From Bacteriovoracaceae bacterium (GTDB lineage: Bacteria > Bdellovibrionota > Bacteriovoracia > Bacteriovoracales > Bacteriovoracaceae), in contig JABIHA010000056.1 of assembly GCA_018649885.1 (NCBI GenBank), positions 1-64,000 of the forward strand: a stretch of DNA of 64,000 nt, written 5' to 3'. A program made the translations under genes and the position numbers. Shown one piece after another: positions 48,733-64,000 of the stretch. The notes under the pieces were generated by a model that searched no databases, was not told where the DNA came from, and saw only the letters and a program-made list of their open reading frames with translations. Position 1 is the stretch's first letter, and each line of letters starts with the position of its first letter.

Positions 48733-48762
48733 AAAGAGGCCCTCTCATGAGGGCCTCTTTTA
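48733..48762. terminator. Intrinsic terminator (bidirectional form)
   Basis: AAAGAGGCCCTC-TCAT-GAGGGCCTCTTT perfect 12-bp stem. Confidence 0.85.
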
Positions 48763-49678: not shown

Positions 49679-52600
49679 ATGCCTTATCACTCTTTCAAGA
49701 GAGCAATGGTTTTATCCATCTTAAGCATCTCTACTTTGTCTCAAGTGGCTACTGCCGATGTTATTGGTAGCTTCTCAGAAACAACGAACCACCCCGGTTA
49801 CGTTACTACCAACAAAAATTCTGGCCAATATAAGCCAGTGGTTTTGCCGAAGCACTATAGAGGTGACGGACTTGAGTATGGATCTCCTTCTCAAATTATA
49901 AAAGGCTATATAAAAGACGGACAGGTTAATAGTGATAAAATTAACCAGGTTATCAAAGGCCTTGATTACTACGTTTCTCAAAATATGCTTTTAGAATGTC
50001 AGATGGATATTCTTAAGGATTACATAAAAAAAGGAAAGACTTCCAAGGAGTTAGCTAAAGACTATGATAAAATTGGAAATAAGGTTTGCACCAAATATCC
50101 AATTAAAGAAGAGTCTGTTGTTCAGGGTTTTTATACCAAATATAAGAAAAGTAGAGTTTTTGTAACCGCTGAAATTGCTAAAGATCGATTAGAAAAAGCA
50201 AAGTCTTATGGCATTTCTATTGCCATGAATGACCAGGGTCTAAATTCTTCTAAAGGATTGTTATTTGTTGAAAACTTGATCGAGGGTCTTGAGATTAATG
50301 AGGCCATTAGAGTTGAGCAATTAGATAAAGGGCTTGAAAAAGGTGCCGTTTCAAAAATTTCTCAAACAATTAAAAACCTATTGCGAAAATACACTATTAA
50401 GAAAGGAAGACCTGAAGCTTCAAACCTTTTAATTCCTTCTAGGTTACTATCAAAATATCCTGGTCGAAAGTACTTTTCATCTGATGAGCTTTCCACCGAA
50501 AAAGTTAAAAAACAACTTAAGAGAGTTGGAAAAGATGTATCCTCATTGACACCTGGTAATACAGGCTTATGGAGAAGTCCAAAAACACCAATTGGTGAGT
50601 ATAATACTGCTAATCACAATAATGGAGAGCCGATTGGGACTCTTTTAAATCATATGTCCAGACCTGAGGCAGAAGCCTTACTAAATCCTGAAGTAGAAAT
50701 CAGTGCTGTTTATAAAAAGAGTAAACATGTAAATGGAACTTCTCCTAAAATGGCAGTTATGATTTCTGGGCAAAAATTTAAACTGAAGTTCATAACCAAC
50801 AAATTAAAAGCGCCACCTCATATGAGTATTCTTGAAACCTTTGAAAGGTTTATGATGCATGGGATGGAGGTTAATGTAGAGCCGGTTACCAACAATATAG
50901 CGGCTGCTCTTGGTTTCACAGTCGATCCAGTTCATTTTCAAAAGTCTATCAGGTTATATCTACCAGGTAGTGACTTTAATAAGTCCTATGAAAAATTCAT
51001 TGAAAAAATGAAAGAAGATTTCGATCCAGGTTTAAGCATTGAGTCTGCTTTTGAAGACGGGCAGTGGCCTGATGGAACAGCTCGAAAAGTTATTCACTTT
51101 GATAAAAAATTACAGAAAAACTACCTTCTTTTAAGAAATGTCACTCTTGAGAAAAAGTCAGACAAACTTTCTGATAGAAATATCGGCCATTTTGCTAAAA
51201 CCTCTTTTGGTCGATCATTAAAAAGAGATCACAGGGCCATGGGACTTTTTCTAGCATGGATTGAAGATAAAGATGTAAAAGATGGTAATGCTAAGGTTAA
51301 GTACATCCCAGGAAAAGATCCAGAAAACTATAGTGATTATAAGATAGCTTACTCTGCAAGTGATATTGGCTCAGGCATCGGGATGGGATTTCCAAATCTT
51401 TACTCAAAAGAATTTGTAAAATCTCACAAAGTTGATAGAAATGGAGATGTTAAGAAAATTACTCTTGGATTCCATTCAGCATATCCAGTAGATATTCTTG
51501 ATGCTGTAACACTTGATGATGCCAAATGGTTTGCAAGCCTAATTATGCAATTATCTCCAAGGCAGATTTATACCGCGATGAGAGAAGGAGGCCGATATCC
51601 TAAGGTGATAGCTCTAACACTAACTGAAACAATGTTAAAAAGAAGAGATGACCTTGTAAAAGCTCTAGGATTAGTAGGAACAACCTTTACTAATGAATTT
51701 GGGCAAACAATTAAATATGAACTCACAAGTCAAATCAATGAAGAAAATGTTGAAAATTATGTGTTAACTGGAAGAAGTAAGACGGGCATTATTTATGACC
51801 CATCTGAATCACTAGATTTATCTAAGTACTTCAAGTTTGGACTTCTTACTGATCCTGATAATTCAATTTATTCCTCTGAAGACGACATCTTTTTAAGATA
51901 CTGGGGATCATCAATGCATTTTGGAAAAAACATTGATGAGAAAAGTGCCATTGAATTCAAGGCCTCTCTAACAAAAGGGCTTTGGAATGATTTAATCAGT
52001 TTAGTGGGACCGGTAATTTCAGATGAAGTACAGTTAACAAATGCTGGTATTGAAATTGATGGCTCAGACCTAAACCTAATTCCTTTTTGCGGTGGAGAGA
52101 AGTGTTTCTTTCAAGGAGCAAAAGTTGGTGTAGAGGGCTTCATCCCTTTTAGATATTACACAAAAAATCCTTTCTTTAATGAGGAAGATCCAAAATCCAA
52201 CAAATATTGGGTTGTTGATGTTTTCAGAATGGCCTTCGTTTTAGGAACTCCAAGTGCCACCATGGATGAAATTTTTGGTGATTCGGATTTAGGCATAGTA
52301 GGCGATAATTCTCTTTTCTCAGCTCAGGGCACAGTTGGCTTTGAATGGGTGAAAATTAGAGGAGTCAGAAATTATATCGAGGCCAAGGAAGAATTAAGAT
52401 CAAGAAGTAGAAAAGCAATTCCTAAGAAAAATTTCAAACAAAACCTTCTGGCTTCAATGGAAAATGGTGACATGCTTATTTCAAGTTCATTTCTTGGTGG
52501 CAAGGCCATGGCGAAATTTAAGTATCCATTATTTTATCTTCTAAATGCAGAGATCAAGGCCAAGACTGAAAGAATTGTAACCAATAGAACAATGGTAATG

Positions 52601-53848
52601 AAGAAAAGCTCAGATGAGGCGATTGTGACTTGGGAAAATGTTGGTGACAGTAATATCGAGCTAAGTGCGGGACTTTCTGTTCTATTATTAAAGTTTCCAC
52701 TTATCAAGGCAAATATCAGGAATCTTAATAAGGTTGATAGAAGTTATAGCTTTGATTTAAATAAACCAACTGAGTTAAAACTTGTAGCTAATTCAATAAA
52801 TAAGATGCTTCCAACTCAAGCTGATTTTCCAGAAGCTAACAAGTTTCGCGTTGATAAACTCCAAATGAATGAATTGGGGCTTATGGCAACATTTTTTAAT
52901 ATATCTGATGCAGTAAATGTTAGACAGAGAAGAATTGTTGCTGAAACTGACTTCACTGATCCTCAGAAAAAAGACAAGACAATACTAGTGTTTGAAAAAA
53001 CAGAAAAGGTTATCTCTAAGGTTGGTCTTCTTCCTGTTAGCAGAGATATTTACACGACAAAAGCAATCTTTGATCAAGATGAAAATCTATACGCAAGCTT
53101 TAAATTTGACTTCACTCTACCAGGTGCTACTAGAGATAAGTTTTTAAAATTTTATGAAAGAAATATCAATCTCTTTCCTAAGGATCTTGTAACTTTCGAC
53201 ATCAGCACAATTAACTACTACGTGGGAGATGTAACTATGAGTAGTGAGGTGATCTTATCAGATGAAGGTATTTATGAACTCTTTGGTCCAGATGAAGATG
53301 GAAATGTTAAGACAAAGAACGATATTTGTCTGATCTACGCCAAAGTTAATGAAGTTGAAAATGATAACACTCAGTGGTGTGAAAAATTGGTGGACGGAGA
53401 TATCTTTACCGTGGCCAAAGGTAATCATCCATTGGCCGCAAAGGCTTTTATAAGAGCTTTCATAAGGGCACAGAAGACATACCAAGAAATTGCAGATGAA
53501 ATTGGTATCACTAAAGGCAAGAAAAGAAGAAAAGCTTTTAAGTTACTCAGAAAGATCGTTAGTGTTTTAAATAAAACCAATAAGTACAGAAGAACACTTG
53601 ATGTACTTTTAGAGTATGTTTCTGATGACAATTACTATAGAAATGCACTGATTGATGTAACAAGGCTTAGATCAATGACTGGTAGAAACTATGAAGTTGA
53701 AATAAGTGATCATTCAAACGGAAACTTTGCTCCAATTAAAGAATACCTTGGGTCGAATCCAAGTTCATATCTAGACAATGTCTTAACAATTGTCCTCGAT
53801 ACACTTGGAAACTTATACGCAAACCCAATATTAATTAAGACAAAGTAG
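49679..53848 (+). CDS. Large secreted protein (1389 aa) with an atypical kinase-like domain and an unknown C-terminal region
   Basis: Signal peptide (VATA); GTSPK..FKLKF..EVNVE..AALGF; WIEDKDVKDGN; SDIG; GGAGG SD. Confidence 0.7.
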   Translation: MPYHSFKRAMVLSILSISTLSQVATADVIGSFSETTNHPGYVTTNKNSGQYKPVVLPKHYRGDGLEYGSPSQIIKGYIKDGQVNSDKINQVIKGLDYYVSQNMLLECQMDILKDYIKKGKTSKELAKDYDKIGNKVCTKYPIKEESVVQGFYTKYKKSRVFVTAEIAKDRLEKAKSYGISIAMNDQGLNSSKGLLFVENLIEGLEINEAIRVEQLDKGLEKGAVSKISQTIKNLLRKYTIKKGRPEASNLLIPSRLLSKYPGRKYFSSDELSTEKVKKQLKRVGKDVSSLTPGNTGLWRSPKTPIGEYNTANHNNGEPIGTLLNHMSRPEAEALLNPEVEISAVYKKSKHVNGTSPKMAVMISGQKFKLKFITNKLKAPPHMSILETFERFMMHGMEVNVEPVTNNIAAALGFTVDPVHFQKSIRLYLPGSDFNKSYEKFIEKMKEDFDPGLSIESAFEDGQWPDGTARKVIHFDKKLQKNYLLLRNVTLEKKSDKLSDRNIGHFAKTSFGRSLKRDHRAMGLFLAWIEDKDVKDGNAKVKYIPGKDPENYSDYKIAYSASDIGSGIGMGFPNLYSKEFVKSHKVDRNGDVKKITLGFHSAYPVDILDAVTLDDAKWFASLIMQLSPRQIYTAMREGGRYPKVIALTLTETMLKRRDDLVKALGLVGTTFTNEFGQTIKYELTSQINEENVENYVLTGRSKTGIIYDPSESLDLSKYFKFGLLTDPDNSIYSSEDDIFLRYWGSSMHFGKNIDEKSAIEFKASLTKGLWNDLISLVGPVISDEVQLTNAGIEIDGSDLNLIPFCGGEKCFFQGAKVGVEGFIPFRYYTKNPFFNEEDPKSNKYWVVDVFRMAFVLGTPSATMDEIFGDSDLGIVGDNSLFSAQGTVGFEWVKIRGVRNYIEAKEELRSRSRKAIPKKNFKQNLLASMENGDMLISSSFLGGKAMAKFKYPLFYLLNAEIKAKTERIVTNRTMVMKKSSDEAIVTWENVGDSNIELSAGLSVLLLKFPLIKANIRNLNKVDRSYSFDLNKPTELKLVANSINKMLPTQADFPEANKFRVDKLQMNELGLMATFFNISDAVNVRQRRIVAETDFTDPQKKDKTILVFEKTEKVISKVGLLPVSRDIYTTKAIFDQDENLYASFKFDFTLPGATRDKFLKFYERNINLFPKDLVTFDISTINYYVGDVTMSSEVILSDEGIYELFGPDEDGNVKTKNDICLIYAKVNEVENDNTQWCEKLVDGDIFTVAKGNHPLAAKAFIRAFIRAQKTYQEIADEIGITKGKKRRKAFKLLRKIVSVLNKTNKYRRTLDVLLEYVSDDNYYRNALIDVTRLRSMTGRNYEVEISDHSNGNFAPIKEYLGSNPSSYLDNVLTIVLDTLGNLYANPILIKTK

Positions 53849-53854
53849 TGAAAA

Positions 53855-53881
53855 ATTGAGCTCACCCTTGGTGGGCTCAAT
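53855..53881. terminator. Stem-loop between the two kinase-like genes
   Basis: ATTGAGCTCACC-CTT-GGTGGGCTCAAT; weak U-tract. Confidence 0.5.
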
Positions 53882-53972
53882 ATAGTTTAAGTAATGTTGC
53901 AGGGGCGATTAATTACATAGCAAGTTGTGGAATTAATCGGTAGGTTCTTAACTCCTAATGAAGGAATGGTAA

Positions 53973-56342
53973 ATGTCTAATTTAAAGAGATTGAATGTGC
54001 TGGCTCTTTTAATGTTTTTCATTATTCAAAGCTCTTACTCAGCAATCGTTGTTCCGCTGAAGCAAGCTGACAAGCTTTTTGAGTCATTTGGTGTTCAAGT
54101 AGATTACGATACGGAATCTTTTAATAATCTGATGACATATTCTCGTGAAACATTACAAAAAAACATTGCTTCAATAGATACTCTTAAGGAGAAAAAATCA
54201 GACCTGAAGAAGACGCTAGCAGAGTCTAAGGATAAGAAAAAGAAAGAAAGAAAAGCTCTCGGTCTTAAGAAGCCGAAGAAATTAAAATCTAAAATTGATG
54301 ATGTTGAAGATAAGATTGATGAACTGGTACTAGCAAATAAATTTCTGATCTATGCAGGTTCACTGCTGGCAGAGGCAAAAGACTCTGATGAAGAACTTGA
54401 AATGGAAAAATCATTTTACTTGGCCAAAAGAATGATTTATGGCCTGGTTGTTGAAGATCTAAAAAATCCACTAATATTCTTTTCTGTAATATGGAAACTC
54501 TTTCACCAATTTAGCACGAAGGTTGATTATATAGCTCCAGAAGATGTTGATAGAAAAATTAATTTGAAGCAAGCTAAAAAAGAAGCTCGCTCCCTTTATG
54601 ATTCAAAAACGGGGAAACTACTAAGAAAAGAAGAGCTTGCTAATTTAAGCTACAATGAAATTGCTGATTTAGATGTATTCCCAAATCATCCTACTTGGAG
54701 AACAAAACAGGAAATGGCCAGCTTAAATGGCGGCAATGCCTACGATGGACTTGTAAGTTGGACTGAACAAAGTGCTAATAAGCAATTGGCCTTAGAGAGT
54801 AAGAAAAAATGTAGAGATTTTAAAAACAAATCCAATAACAAGAATATCGAATGTCCGCTCGCTAGTTATACTCCAGACTACACTCTTGAGGCTGCAAGGA
54901 AAGTTCTTTTCTTTACCAAAGTGAAAGATAACGATACTAACCCTAAGATTAGTACCAAAGATGCTTACGGTATGAAATGGAAGGTGAAGTGGGGATCTGA
55001 AACGCAATCAGAAACGGTTGCTGGACGAATCTATCTTCAACTAGGTGCTCGTTATACAGACCCTCTATATGTTGCAAGACATAACGATGGATCAATGCTT
55101 ACTCTGGTCTTAGACAAGAAAGACAAGGAAAGTAAAAAATTAGAAATTACTGGTAAATCTAAACATCATAAAAAAGAGTGTCGCGAAATCTACACTTACG
55201 ACCACTTTAGAAAGTGCTTAATGTCATCAATTTATAAATTTAAAGTTGATGGATATGTGAAAGATCATGGAGTGATCACCGAAGAAAATGCCGAAGAGAT
55301 ATTAAAAGATCTTCCGCGAAATACTTTGAAACAAAAATACCAACTTAAAGATGCTATTGGCAGAGAGTATGTAACTTTCATTGAAACCTCTGTGGAATTT
55401 AGAGGCTCAAAAAAGGGTCTTGATAAAAGTGGAGCTGAAGCCTATTCATCAATGGGCGTAACAGACGATAGAGCTGGTAGAGCAACAGGACTATATAACT
55501 TATATGTTTGGAATATTGATGTACGAGATCAAAATAATTCAGCTTTTCTCTTCCATGACTATCAAGGAAATAGAGATCTTTATGTTGGAATTACAACTGA
55601 TTTAGGTGCCACAAATGGTGGGGCCCTAACATCAGCAAAACTCAATAAATTTACAGTTGGAGAAGACTTCGTAAAAATAAAAAGGCGTACAAAAAAAGTT
55701 GAAGGAGTCCAGCACTATAAATTGAAATTCAAACAGTTTATCCTCTATAGACCAGATGCGTGGGTAAAATCAACTCACTCTGACTTATTATGGATGGCCA
55801 AAAAAATCGCAAGATTATCCAATGAAGATATTGAATACGCAGTTAGTATCTCTCGCTGGCCAGATTTCATGCAAGAGATGTACAGATATAAATTAGAGGC
55901 AAGAAGAAATAGGATTGCTGAGCTATATGGACAAGAAGTATTACTTAGTAAAGTTAGTGGTCTTCTAAGAATGAATCCAGTACTAGAAGCGCCTGCTCCT
56001 TTTGAAGTCGATCTTTCTACAGCAGCTCAAAGAAGAGCAGTTGAAAGAAAATATGATTTGCCTACTAATTCCATTGATCATGCTATGGTTAAAGGTAAGA
56101 TAATCGATCAACAGATGAATCCACTAAAGAAGAAGTATAGAGACCAAGATGGAAACTTAAAGTTCATTGATGTATTGACTGCTGATGGAGATATTAGCAA
56201 GTGTCAAAAAACAGTACTCATTGGATTACTTGAGAAAGTACACTTCATTTCAGGTCTTGAAAGAAGAACTTCTAGGTTTACTGACTTTAAAAATTTAAAA
56301 GAATGTTATTTTGGGCACAGACCAATGGCACTAGTTGATTAA
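53973..56342 (+). CDS. Secreted protein (789 aa) with an atypical kinase-like domain; paralog of the upstream gene
   Basis: Signal peptide (SSYSA); TNPK..D..G.KWKVKWG.ETQSE..A.R; WNIDVRDQNN; TDLG. Confidence 0.7.
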   Translation: MSNLKRLNVLALLMFFIIQSSYSAIVVPLKQADKLFESFGVQVDYDTESFNNLMTYSRETLQKNIASIDTLKEKKSDLKKTLAESKDKKKKERKALGLKKPKKLKSKIDDVEDKIDELVLANKFLIYAGSLLAEAKDSDEELEMEKSFYLAKRMIYGLVVEDLKNPLIFFSVIWKLFHQFSTKVDYIAPEDVDRKINLKQAKKEARSLYDSKTGKLLRKEELANLSYNEIADLDVFPNHPTWRTKQEMASLNGGNAYDGLVSWTEQSANKQLALESKKKCRDFKNKSNNKNIECPLASYTPDYTLEAARKVLFFTKVKDNDTNPKISTKDAYGMKWKVKWGSETQSETVAGRIYLQLGARYTDPLYVARHNDGSMLTLVLDKKDKESKKLEITGKSKHHKKECREIYTYDHFRKCLMSSIYKFKVDGYVKDHGVITEENAEEILKDLPRNTLKQKYQLKDAIGREYVTFIETSVEFRGSKKGLDKSGAEAYSSMGVTDDRAGRATGLYNLYVWNIDVRDQNNSAFLFHDYQGNRDLYVGITTDLGATNGGALTSAKLNKFTVGEDFVKIKRRTKKVEGVQHYKLKFKQFILYRPDAWVKSTHSDLLWMAKKIARLSNEDIEYAVSISRWPDFMQEMYRYKLEARRNRIAELYGQEVLLSKVSGLLRMNPVLEAPAPFEVDLSTAAQRRAVERKYDLPTNSIDHAMVKGKIIDQQMNPLKKKYRDQDGNLKFIDVLTADGDISKCQKTVLIGLLEKVHFISGLERRTSRFTDFKNLKECYFGHRPMALVD

Positions 56343-62808: not shown

Positions 62809-64000
62809 ATGCTCAGAGTGTTTTTTCTATTTTTTGTTTTCGGTTCTTTTTTAGGTTATTCCACGAGCTATGCCAGTGAAGCATGTCGAAATCCCATTAA
62901 ATGGAAACCAGCCTTTCATGCCTCAACAGGTTGGCTGATGGATAAACTTATTCGTCACGTGCGAGGAGATGAAGGTGGGGGACTAAAGGAATTTAATCCC
63001 GCTTGTAGATATGTCTTGGCGAAAATGGCCACTGCTGAAGTGGAAAGACAGCTAAGAGTGCAAAAAGTTAATCGAAAATATCCACCAGATGAATACTTTG
63101 ACACTGAAATGACTTGCCAGCAAAGAAGAGAAACTGAGGGAACAGTAAAAACCTTATGGATTAAACATAAGGCAAAGCTTACTTTGAAAGAAGCCTGTCC
63201 CCATGAGTGGAAGTTAGACGAACAATATCGACAATTAAAAGATGCTGCCTTGGTGGCAATGAAAGATGCAACTGAAGGTGATTCATCACTCGCTAATAAA
63301 AGTATAAAAGCGAAGGGATGCAAGCTAATAGATGACCAATATGAGATATATCCATTGTATGATTGCCGACTTGATTGTGCTTCATCTGACTGGTGTACCG
63401 AAACAAGAGGGGCGGTTACAGTCAATCCAGATGGCTCAGAGACAGGAGTCGATGAAAGAGTGGCTGAGATTGTGGTTGAACAAACAACTAGTGTTGAGGA
63501 AGGCGATTTAACAGCGGCAGTAACCGCTTGTAATAAAAAAGGGCCAGAAATCGTGGCCATGGGAACATTCGACTTTTGTAGTGGTGAAACATTAGAAATT
63601 ATGGCCGACCATTACGGATGTACTGACCCCAATCAAAGCAACTCTGTTATTGGGCAAATGGGTTACTTCAATGGAAGTGACTTGGATGCAGAAACCAAAG
63701 AAATGTATCATTATGTAAAAAAATTCATGCTAGACAAGGCTTGGAAAAATACACCTCTTCAGATTAGATCTATAGTTCTTAATAATAGAAAGTGCAATGG
63801 CATAATAGGAGATGACCCACTATTGAACTCTTCTCGAGTTCCTGACCCCTACGAAATGTCTCTGGAAGATTTTGAACATGAAATAGAGTTTATTCCCTAC
63901 CTGGAGGAAATTTGCACCAGCTCTCCCAAAGAGCCCTTCCCTTTTTCTGAACCGGGAAGAAAAGAATTCTTTAAATATTTAAGAGCGCAAGATCCTCACT
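62809..64000 (+). CDS. Secreted Cys-containing hypothetical protein, runs off the window end
   Basis: Not in the ORF track; manual translation MLRVFFLFFVFGSFLGYSTSYA-SEACRNP... stays open to 64000. Confidence 0.8.
   Translation, partial: MLRVFFLFFVFGSFLGYSTSYASEACRNPIKWKPAFHASTGWLMDKLIRHVRGDEGGGLKEFNPACRYVLAKMATAEVERQLRVQKVNRKYPPDEYFDTEMTCQQRRETEGTVKTLWIKHKAKLTLKEACPHEWKLDEQYRQLKDAALVAMKDATEGDSSLANKSIKAKGCKLIDDQYEIYPLYDCRLDCASSDWCTETRGAVTVNPDGSETGVDERVAEIVVEQTTSVEEGDLTAAVTACNKKGPEIVAMGTFDFCSGETLEIMADHYGCTDPNQSNSVIGQMGYFNGSDLDAETKEMYHYVKKFMLDKAWKNTPLQIRSIVLNNRKCNGIIGDDPLLNSSRVPDPYEMSLEDFEHEIEFIPYLEEICTSSPKEPFPFSEPGRKEFFKYLRAQDPH

Follow-up and report, generated by a model that had tools for sequence, protein, structure and literature searches.

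We describe two adjacent genes, ORF1 and ORF2 (ORF, open reading frame), in a 64,000-nucleotide stretch of DNA, hereafter the window, from a Bacteriovoracaceae bacterium (GenBank assembly GCA_018649885.1, contig JABIHA010000056.1, positions 1 to 64,000 of the forward strand). Their products belong to a large family of kinases, so far without a name and predicted to be exported, that is present in 15 copies in this predatory-type bacterium, and we tentatively favour the view that these enzymes act on prey. An initial annotation of the same DNA had read the genes as a tandem pair of secreted paralogs with an atypical-kinase arrangement of motifs, and every motif pair that it quoted is present, in the same order in both proteins.

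Predicted structures of both proteins contain a bilobal kinase fold, and the order of the catalytic residues along the secondary structure was checked on these models; an atypical kinase fold is very probable for ORF1 and ORF2. Each of 11 key residues is retained in 148 to 151 of 151 homologs, including the β3 Lys, αC Glu, D-x4-N loop and D-x-G motif singled out by the initial annotation; two residues after the catalytic Asp, 133 proteins have Lys and 10 have Arg. These homologs were chosen with the same family profile, while members from Acidobacteriota, which came by another route, also keep the residues. We infer that ORF1 and ORF2 are probably active phosphotransferases.

Direct comparison of the two proteins by BLASTP gives a weak match (22% over 260 columns, E 0.002), but a profile of the 15 paralogs scores both at E below 1e-170, so that their likeness is not a matter of chance. 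When a profile of 31 kinase cores was compared with 1.84 billion proteins, 2,397 representatives at 50% identity were found at E 0.001 (1,157 at 1e-10 and 524 at 1e-30), and in a sample of the phylum 64 of 201 genomes contain a match. Acidobacteriota commonly carry a minimal form of 320–350 residues that begins with a signal-like N-terminus (218 confirmed stretches), and the two lysines, the Glu and the two aspartate motifs are present in 21 of 21 minimal-type ORFs sampled. The description of the pair as uncharacterised holds: neither Pfam nor NCBIfam has a family for ORF1, ORF2 or their homologs, the proteins are named 'hypothetical' in databases, and the literature searched, with most subscription papers outside the search, contains no description of the family or of its Bdellovibrio member Bd2429. 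A 2026 kinase-discovery preprint, in its accessible part, mentions neither these taxa nor VTC or CtkA. The family is thus new within a known fold, and its kinase-barrel architecture was not found in the literature searched. Two divergent paralogs of the same genome (665–667 residues, with a D-N-F loop; contigs C84 and C82) belong to duplicated clusters that also encode a sugar transferase and a GH44 glycosidase; after the C84 copy come glycosyltransferase, deacetylase and GH5 genes. Family genes on contigs C17 and C45 of relative G008 (L019, L023, L032, L038) are broken by stops or frameshifts in that assembly.

Both N-termini appear Sec-like by eye, with a basic n-region, a hydrophobic stretch and A-T-A or S-Y-S-A, in agreement with the signal peptides first noted for the two ORFs, and a crude test for a hydrophobic N-terminus is positive for 129 of 144 full-length homologs compared with 293 of 496 long proteins of the same genome. 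Sec-dependent export is predicted from sequence for both proteins, and it is very probable that they function outside the cytoplasm.

Type II PI4-kinases, Legionella MavQ, HipA/HipT, actin-fragmin kinase and Fam20 have no Pfam match to either ORF. The D-R-H loop is a motif of PI3K/PI4K and Fam20, whereas both ORFs carry D-x-K/R-x-x-N, and neither matches a PI3/PI4 kinase or Fam20C model in Pfam; Atlas similarity to Fam20 is 0.84, with 110 of 256 features in common. ORF1 and ORF2 also differ from HipA/HipT in having signal peptides, no antitoxin-like small neighbour occurs among window ORFs of at least 100 residues, and the Atlas similarity of 0.83 to HipA/HipT is a lead only. Helicobacter pylori CtkA (PDB codes 3AKJ, 3AKK and 3AKL) shares 12–13% identity in the absence of any sequence-level match, its chains being under 300 residues and devoid of a barrel. 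CotH kinases are likewise exported atypical kinases, and some relatives of ORF1 and ORF2 lie in the same VTC-DUF4956 setting, yet the CotH Pfam model matches neither ORF, none of the 31 cores and none of 40 long members. A PDB sequence search returned nothing for ORF2, and the profile matched only designed armadillo repeats in the PDB, over about 34 positions, which was rejected as an artefact.

That the two ORFs are paralogs of one family is upheld by the profile scores, but they are not tandem duplicates. In a FastTree phylogeny of 279 columns that includes every fourth Acidobacteriota locus, they fall in separate, well-supported clades at a distance of 4.09, with a common ancestor spanning 63 of 103 rows, and each is nearer to paralogs elsewhere in the genome (ORF1 to those on contigs C145 and C71, ORF2 to that on C8); tandem duplication was therefore rejected. 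ORF1 and ORF2 are distantly related, separately acquired members of the family. Of the exported kinase system first proposed, export stands and the two-gene unit does not: the proteins belong to different subfamilies, a hairpin separates the genes, and no ORF1-type gene adjoins an ORF2-type gene in any of 60 relatives searched with each protein. No conserved neighbours were found, and the surroundings of the other 13 paralogs are unrelated.

The pair sits where a gltG-like gene and a set of exbD/exbD/motA-like genes converge, a position that had suggested that the kinases modify the adjacent Glt/Agl-like gliding machinery. The two markers are convergent in 38 of 51 other genomes that have both, the remaining 13 having them on different contigs or differently arranged, and in those 38 the gap between them is 9–4,088 bases (median 642) compared with 8,527 bases here; not even ORF2 would fit into 32 of these gaps. 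Linkage of the kinases to the glt operon is not conserved in the relatives compared, and a role in gliding is very improbable.

The initial annotation was silent on the 600 C-terminal residues of ORF1, which form a predicted barrel. The domain reads like the description of AvrE/DspE channels, single-chain barrels with helical insertions, a terminal helix and hydrophobicity on the lower stem only (PMC10511319). Those proteins use type III secretion, whereas ORF1 has a Sec signal and a kinase cap; AvrE homology was not detected by Pfam, and hhalign against one distant member gave a probability of 0.1, like shuffled sequences. ORF1 has no BAM-type C-terminal aromatic strand, its C-terminus being helical; a BAM-like pattern occurs in one of 81 long family members and a terminal F or W in 24. 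We consider it somewhat more likely than not that the barrel inserts into membranes. The genome also encodes stand-alone barrel-domain proteins: one of 596 residues on contig C133 (L097:7625-9415), upstream of a laminin-G/pentraxin-like exported protein, and one of 589 residues on contig C21, in a run of genes (L094:3637-13984) where it comes after a HEAT protein and an extra Omp85 and before a 345-residue exported protein and, last, a kinase-barrel paralog that aligns with Met at the β3 and Gln at the αC position. Plasmid collections contain no match to a minimal family member or the barrel; phage and viral collections were outside the search.

Of 100 other genomes of the same bacterial family, 27 contain a match at E below 1e-30, counted as strong, 53 have weak partial matches only and 20 have none. 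The weak matches are proteins of 1,000–1,200 residues that share the ORF1-type C-terminal domain (probability 99.7) and have lost the β3 Lys, αC Glu and catalytic loop; this kinase-dead form is the most widespread. At 18 of 20 loci of the bacterial family, hand-picked from the list of weak matches, its gene adjoins that of a long subtilase, mostly together with a lipoprotein gene, and four loci from other families show the same arrangement. It includes Q6MKG4, that is, Bd2429 of Bdellovibrio bacteriovorus, encoded between Bd2430 and the subtilase Bd2428. Bd2429 shares the two-domain architecture of ORF1 but differs in its lost kinase residues and its fixed operon with Bd2428 and the lipoprotein Bd2427. 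Supplement 3 of PMC12546842 gives 43 peptides for Bd2429, with values of 5.79, 6.41, 6.70 and 5.13 at 15 min, 30 min, 1 h and 5 h, and 4.01, 4.67, 5.13 and 3.51 for Bd2428 at the same times. Bd2428 is listed as a transposon-defined predation gene induced at 30 min (PMC2797640) and appears in the prey-directed secretome of PMC11003981. In the transposon-sequencing supplements, Bd2427–Bd2429 are not among the HD100 names, the full table using other, unmapped tags. The Bdellovibrio kinase-barrel protein CAE77910.1 was not found in two proteomes, and no locus tag matched it. Kinase-barrel proteins of family f9 (L108, L109, L111, L113, L115) have Arg at β3, a D-x-F/Y-x-x-Q loop and mostly D-x-S, and by sequence are possibly intermediate between active and dead forms.

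The prevalence of the dead form, and the existence of stand-alone barrels, would fit a fold whose main role is to bind nucleotide or lipid and to serve as scaffold or gate for the barrel, with phosphotransfer minor or absent. Both ORFs, however, retain all catalytic residues, nearly invariant among the 151 homologs and the Acidobacteriota members, and ORF2 has no barrel to gate, which makes this explanation quite unlikely.

Bd2429 lends indirect support to the idea of prey effectors. We envisage ORF2 as a soluble kinase and ORF1 as a kinase atop a predicted barrel that would insert into the target membrane. Both enzymes would be released into the prey periplasm, where the hydrophobic hairpin tips would carry the barrel into the prey membrane; there it would leak nucleotides to the kinase cap, serving as anchor or conduit, and phosphate may be passed to a lipid or protein of the prey envelope. 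Any exported kinase requires a donor, and prey nucleotides would be the simplest phosphate source for a periplasmic predator; on this ground action on prey is tentatively favoured, with a self-directed envelope cycle as a slightly less likely alternative. PMC13689555 cites work on an ATP transport system of Bdellovibrio. For ORF1 and ORF2 themselves, prey direction has nearly an even chance. A more far-reaching version, in which predators of the Bdellovibrionota own an undescribed class of self-inserting, single-chain, kinase-capped channels that puncture the prey membrane and feed prey ATP to the cap and to soluble sisters such as ORF2, while the dead Bd2429, matured by Bd2428, drains prey, seems unlikely.

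If the kinases instead act on the envelope of the producing cell, their targets would be periplasmic proteins, lipids or exopolysaccharide, and exported phosphatases would complete the cycle. The donor would be made and exported by the cell, likely as VTC/DUF4956 polyphosphate, and the ORF1 barrel would hold the kinase in the cell's own outer membrane. Neighbourhoods of the minimal type, counted at 80 of the 218 stretches, nearly all from Acidobacteriota, agree with this: within 5 kb an exported metallophosphoesterase (41) or DSP/PTP phosphatase (7) is found at 48 loci, and an ABC exporter together with a PLD-like gene at 47 (ABC transporter 57, PLD-like 51), although these counts are not independent because the genomes are related. 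One such operon (e.g., L148:4100-9690) comprises an ABC exporter, the minimal exported kinase, a PLD-like protein with weak polyphosphate-kinase matches below cut-off, an exported 200-residue protein and an exported metallophosphoesterase. VTC lies within 5 kb at five of 20 intact-kinase loci of the bacterial family, four of them with a run of DUF4956, HlyD-like, efflux-protein and VTC genes; at L074, L076, L077, L079 and L090 the kinase-barrel gene directly follows DUF4956, HlyD-like (with phytase-like matches), efflux and VTC genes, in the place commonly taken by a CotH kinase. A cotH-polymerase-DUF4956 cluster is given as a known setting for CotH kinases in 10.1101/768473. The genome studied here has two VTC genes (C38:1-1825 and C143:7706-9320), by inspection one after a CotH-like ORF and the other before a DUF4956-like ORF, and polysaccharide clusters contain two of the paralogs, while another paralog is close to an extra Omp85. 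Against an own-envelope cycle, VTC is not among the listed neighbours of ORF1, ORF2 or the other 13 paralogs, the ORF1/ORF2 locus lacks DUF4956 and VTC neighbours, the four VTC-DUF4956 loci possibly reflect one inherited event, the barrel has no C-terminal BAM signal, and the expansion to 15 scattered copies and the association between the dead form and a predation protease are left unexplained.

Several observations weigh against action on prey as well. The predation evidence concerns the kinase-dead relative rather than the ORF1/ORF2 type, Bd2429 is missing from those secretome supplements (PMC11003981) that contain Bd2427, Bd2428 and Bd2430 and from the cluster file of the proteome paper, and a Bd2427–Bd2429-type operon was not found in the genome of ORF1 and ORF2, which is 92% complete. 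Since strong matches occur in only 27 of the 100 genomes, full-length kinases are not core predation genes. Structural matches of the ORF1 barrel domain are generic (root-mean-square deviation 5–8 Å, 3–8% identity), its later hairpins have weaker hydrophobic tips, look-alikes of it turn up in Acidobacteriota in the Atlas (0.91–0.92), and with Foldseek neither ORF model had a match at an E of 0.001 or below. Acidobacteriota commonly encode minimal members with intact catalytic residues, in operons that include exported phosphatases. These bacteria are not known to be predators, and their family members suggest a use other than predation; both uses may well occur within the family, each in different lineages.

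Table 1 Features of the ORF1/ORF2 locus (positions in the window)
Feature	Position	Strand	Description
ORF1	49679..53848	+	1389 aa: signal peptide, N-terminal region, atypical kinase domain, C-terminal predicted barrel domain
ORF1 likely Sec signal peptide, aa 1-26	49679..49756	+	Sequence inspection; homolog heuristic
ORF1 kinase core, aa 274-668	50498..51682	+	K357, K370 (β3), E397 (αC), R516/R519, D532-x-K534-x-x-N537, D562-x-G564, D614/W617
ORF1 C-terminal domain, aa about 783-1389	52025..53845	+	Predicted barrel: 13 long predicted strands, inserted helices, hydrophobic hairpin tips, helical C-terminus
12-pair hairpin between ORF1 and ORF2, possible terminator	53855..53881	+	-18.3 kcal/mol, z -3.19
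ORF2	53973..56342	+	789 aa: signal peptide, long helical hairpin, atypical kinase domain, C-terminal extension with conserved cysteines; no barrel
ORF2 N-terminal helical hairpin (coiled-coil-like), aa about 47-163	54111..54461	+	Generic helical-bundle structural matches only
ORF2 kinase core, aa 225-657	54645..55943	+	K325, K339 (β3), E343 (αC), R500/R503, D516-x-R518-x-x-N521, D543-x-G545, D604/W607
Conserved residues, ORF2 (ORF1)			K325 (K357), K339 (K370), E343 (E397), R500 (R516), R503 (R519), D516 (D532), N521 (N537), D543 (D562), G545 (G564), D604 (D614), W607 (W617)
Two unnamed lipoprotein-like ORFs, 246 and 205 aa	47846..49406	-	In the same insertion between gltG-like and exbD-like genes

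The hairpin between ORF1 and ORF2 was equalled in stability by one of 200 shuffles; the terminator scan misses it, its T-tract rule being unmet, and the promoter scan was uninformative (20 sites compared with 25.8 expected). A second 12-pair palindromic hairpin (48733-48760) lies between the lipoprotein-like ORFs, which have no Pfam or NCBIfam match, as is also the case for a cysteine-rich exported ORF that runs off the end of the window (62809-63999). One marine RNA run matched a fraction of 0.10 of words and yielded five short contigs (at least 99% identity) on ORF1, one of them extending past the stop, one on the motA-like gene and none inside ORF2; the contigs are possibly derived from DNA, and therefore do not demonstrate expression.

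The two genes define a large unnamed family of exported bacterial kinases, with 2,397 representatives at 50% identity, and raise the question of where a kinase outside the cytoplasm obtains its phosphate, prey ATP delivered through a fused barrel and exported polyphosphate being the candidates. They also allow Bd2429, whose gene adjoins a known predation gene and whose product is uncharacterised, to be read in structural terms for the first time, and because Bd2429 belongs to a genetically tractable model predator the main ideas are directly testable. Action of the kinases on prey, if true, would give bacterial predators a means of tapping or modifying their prey that has not been described before.

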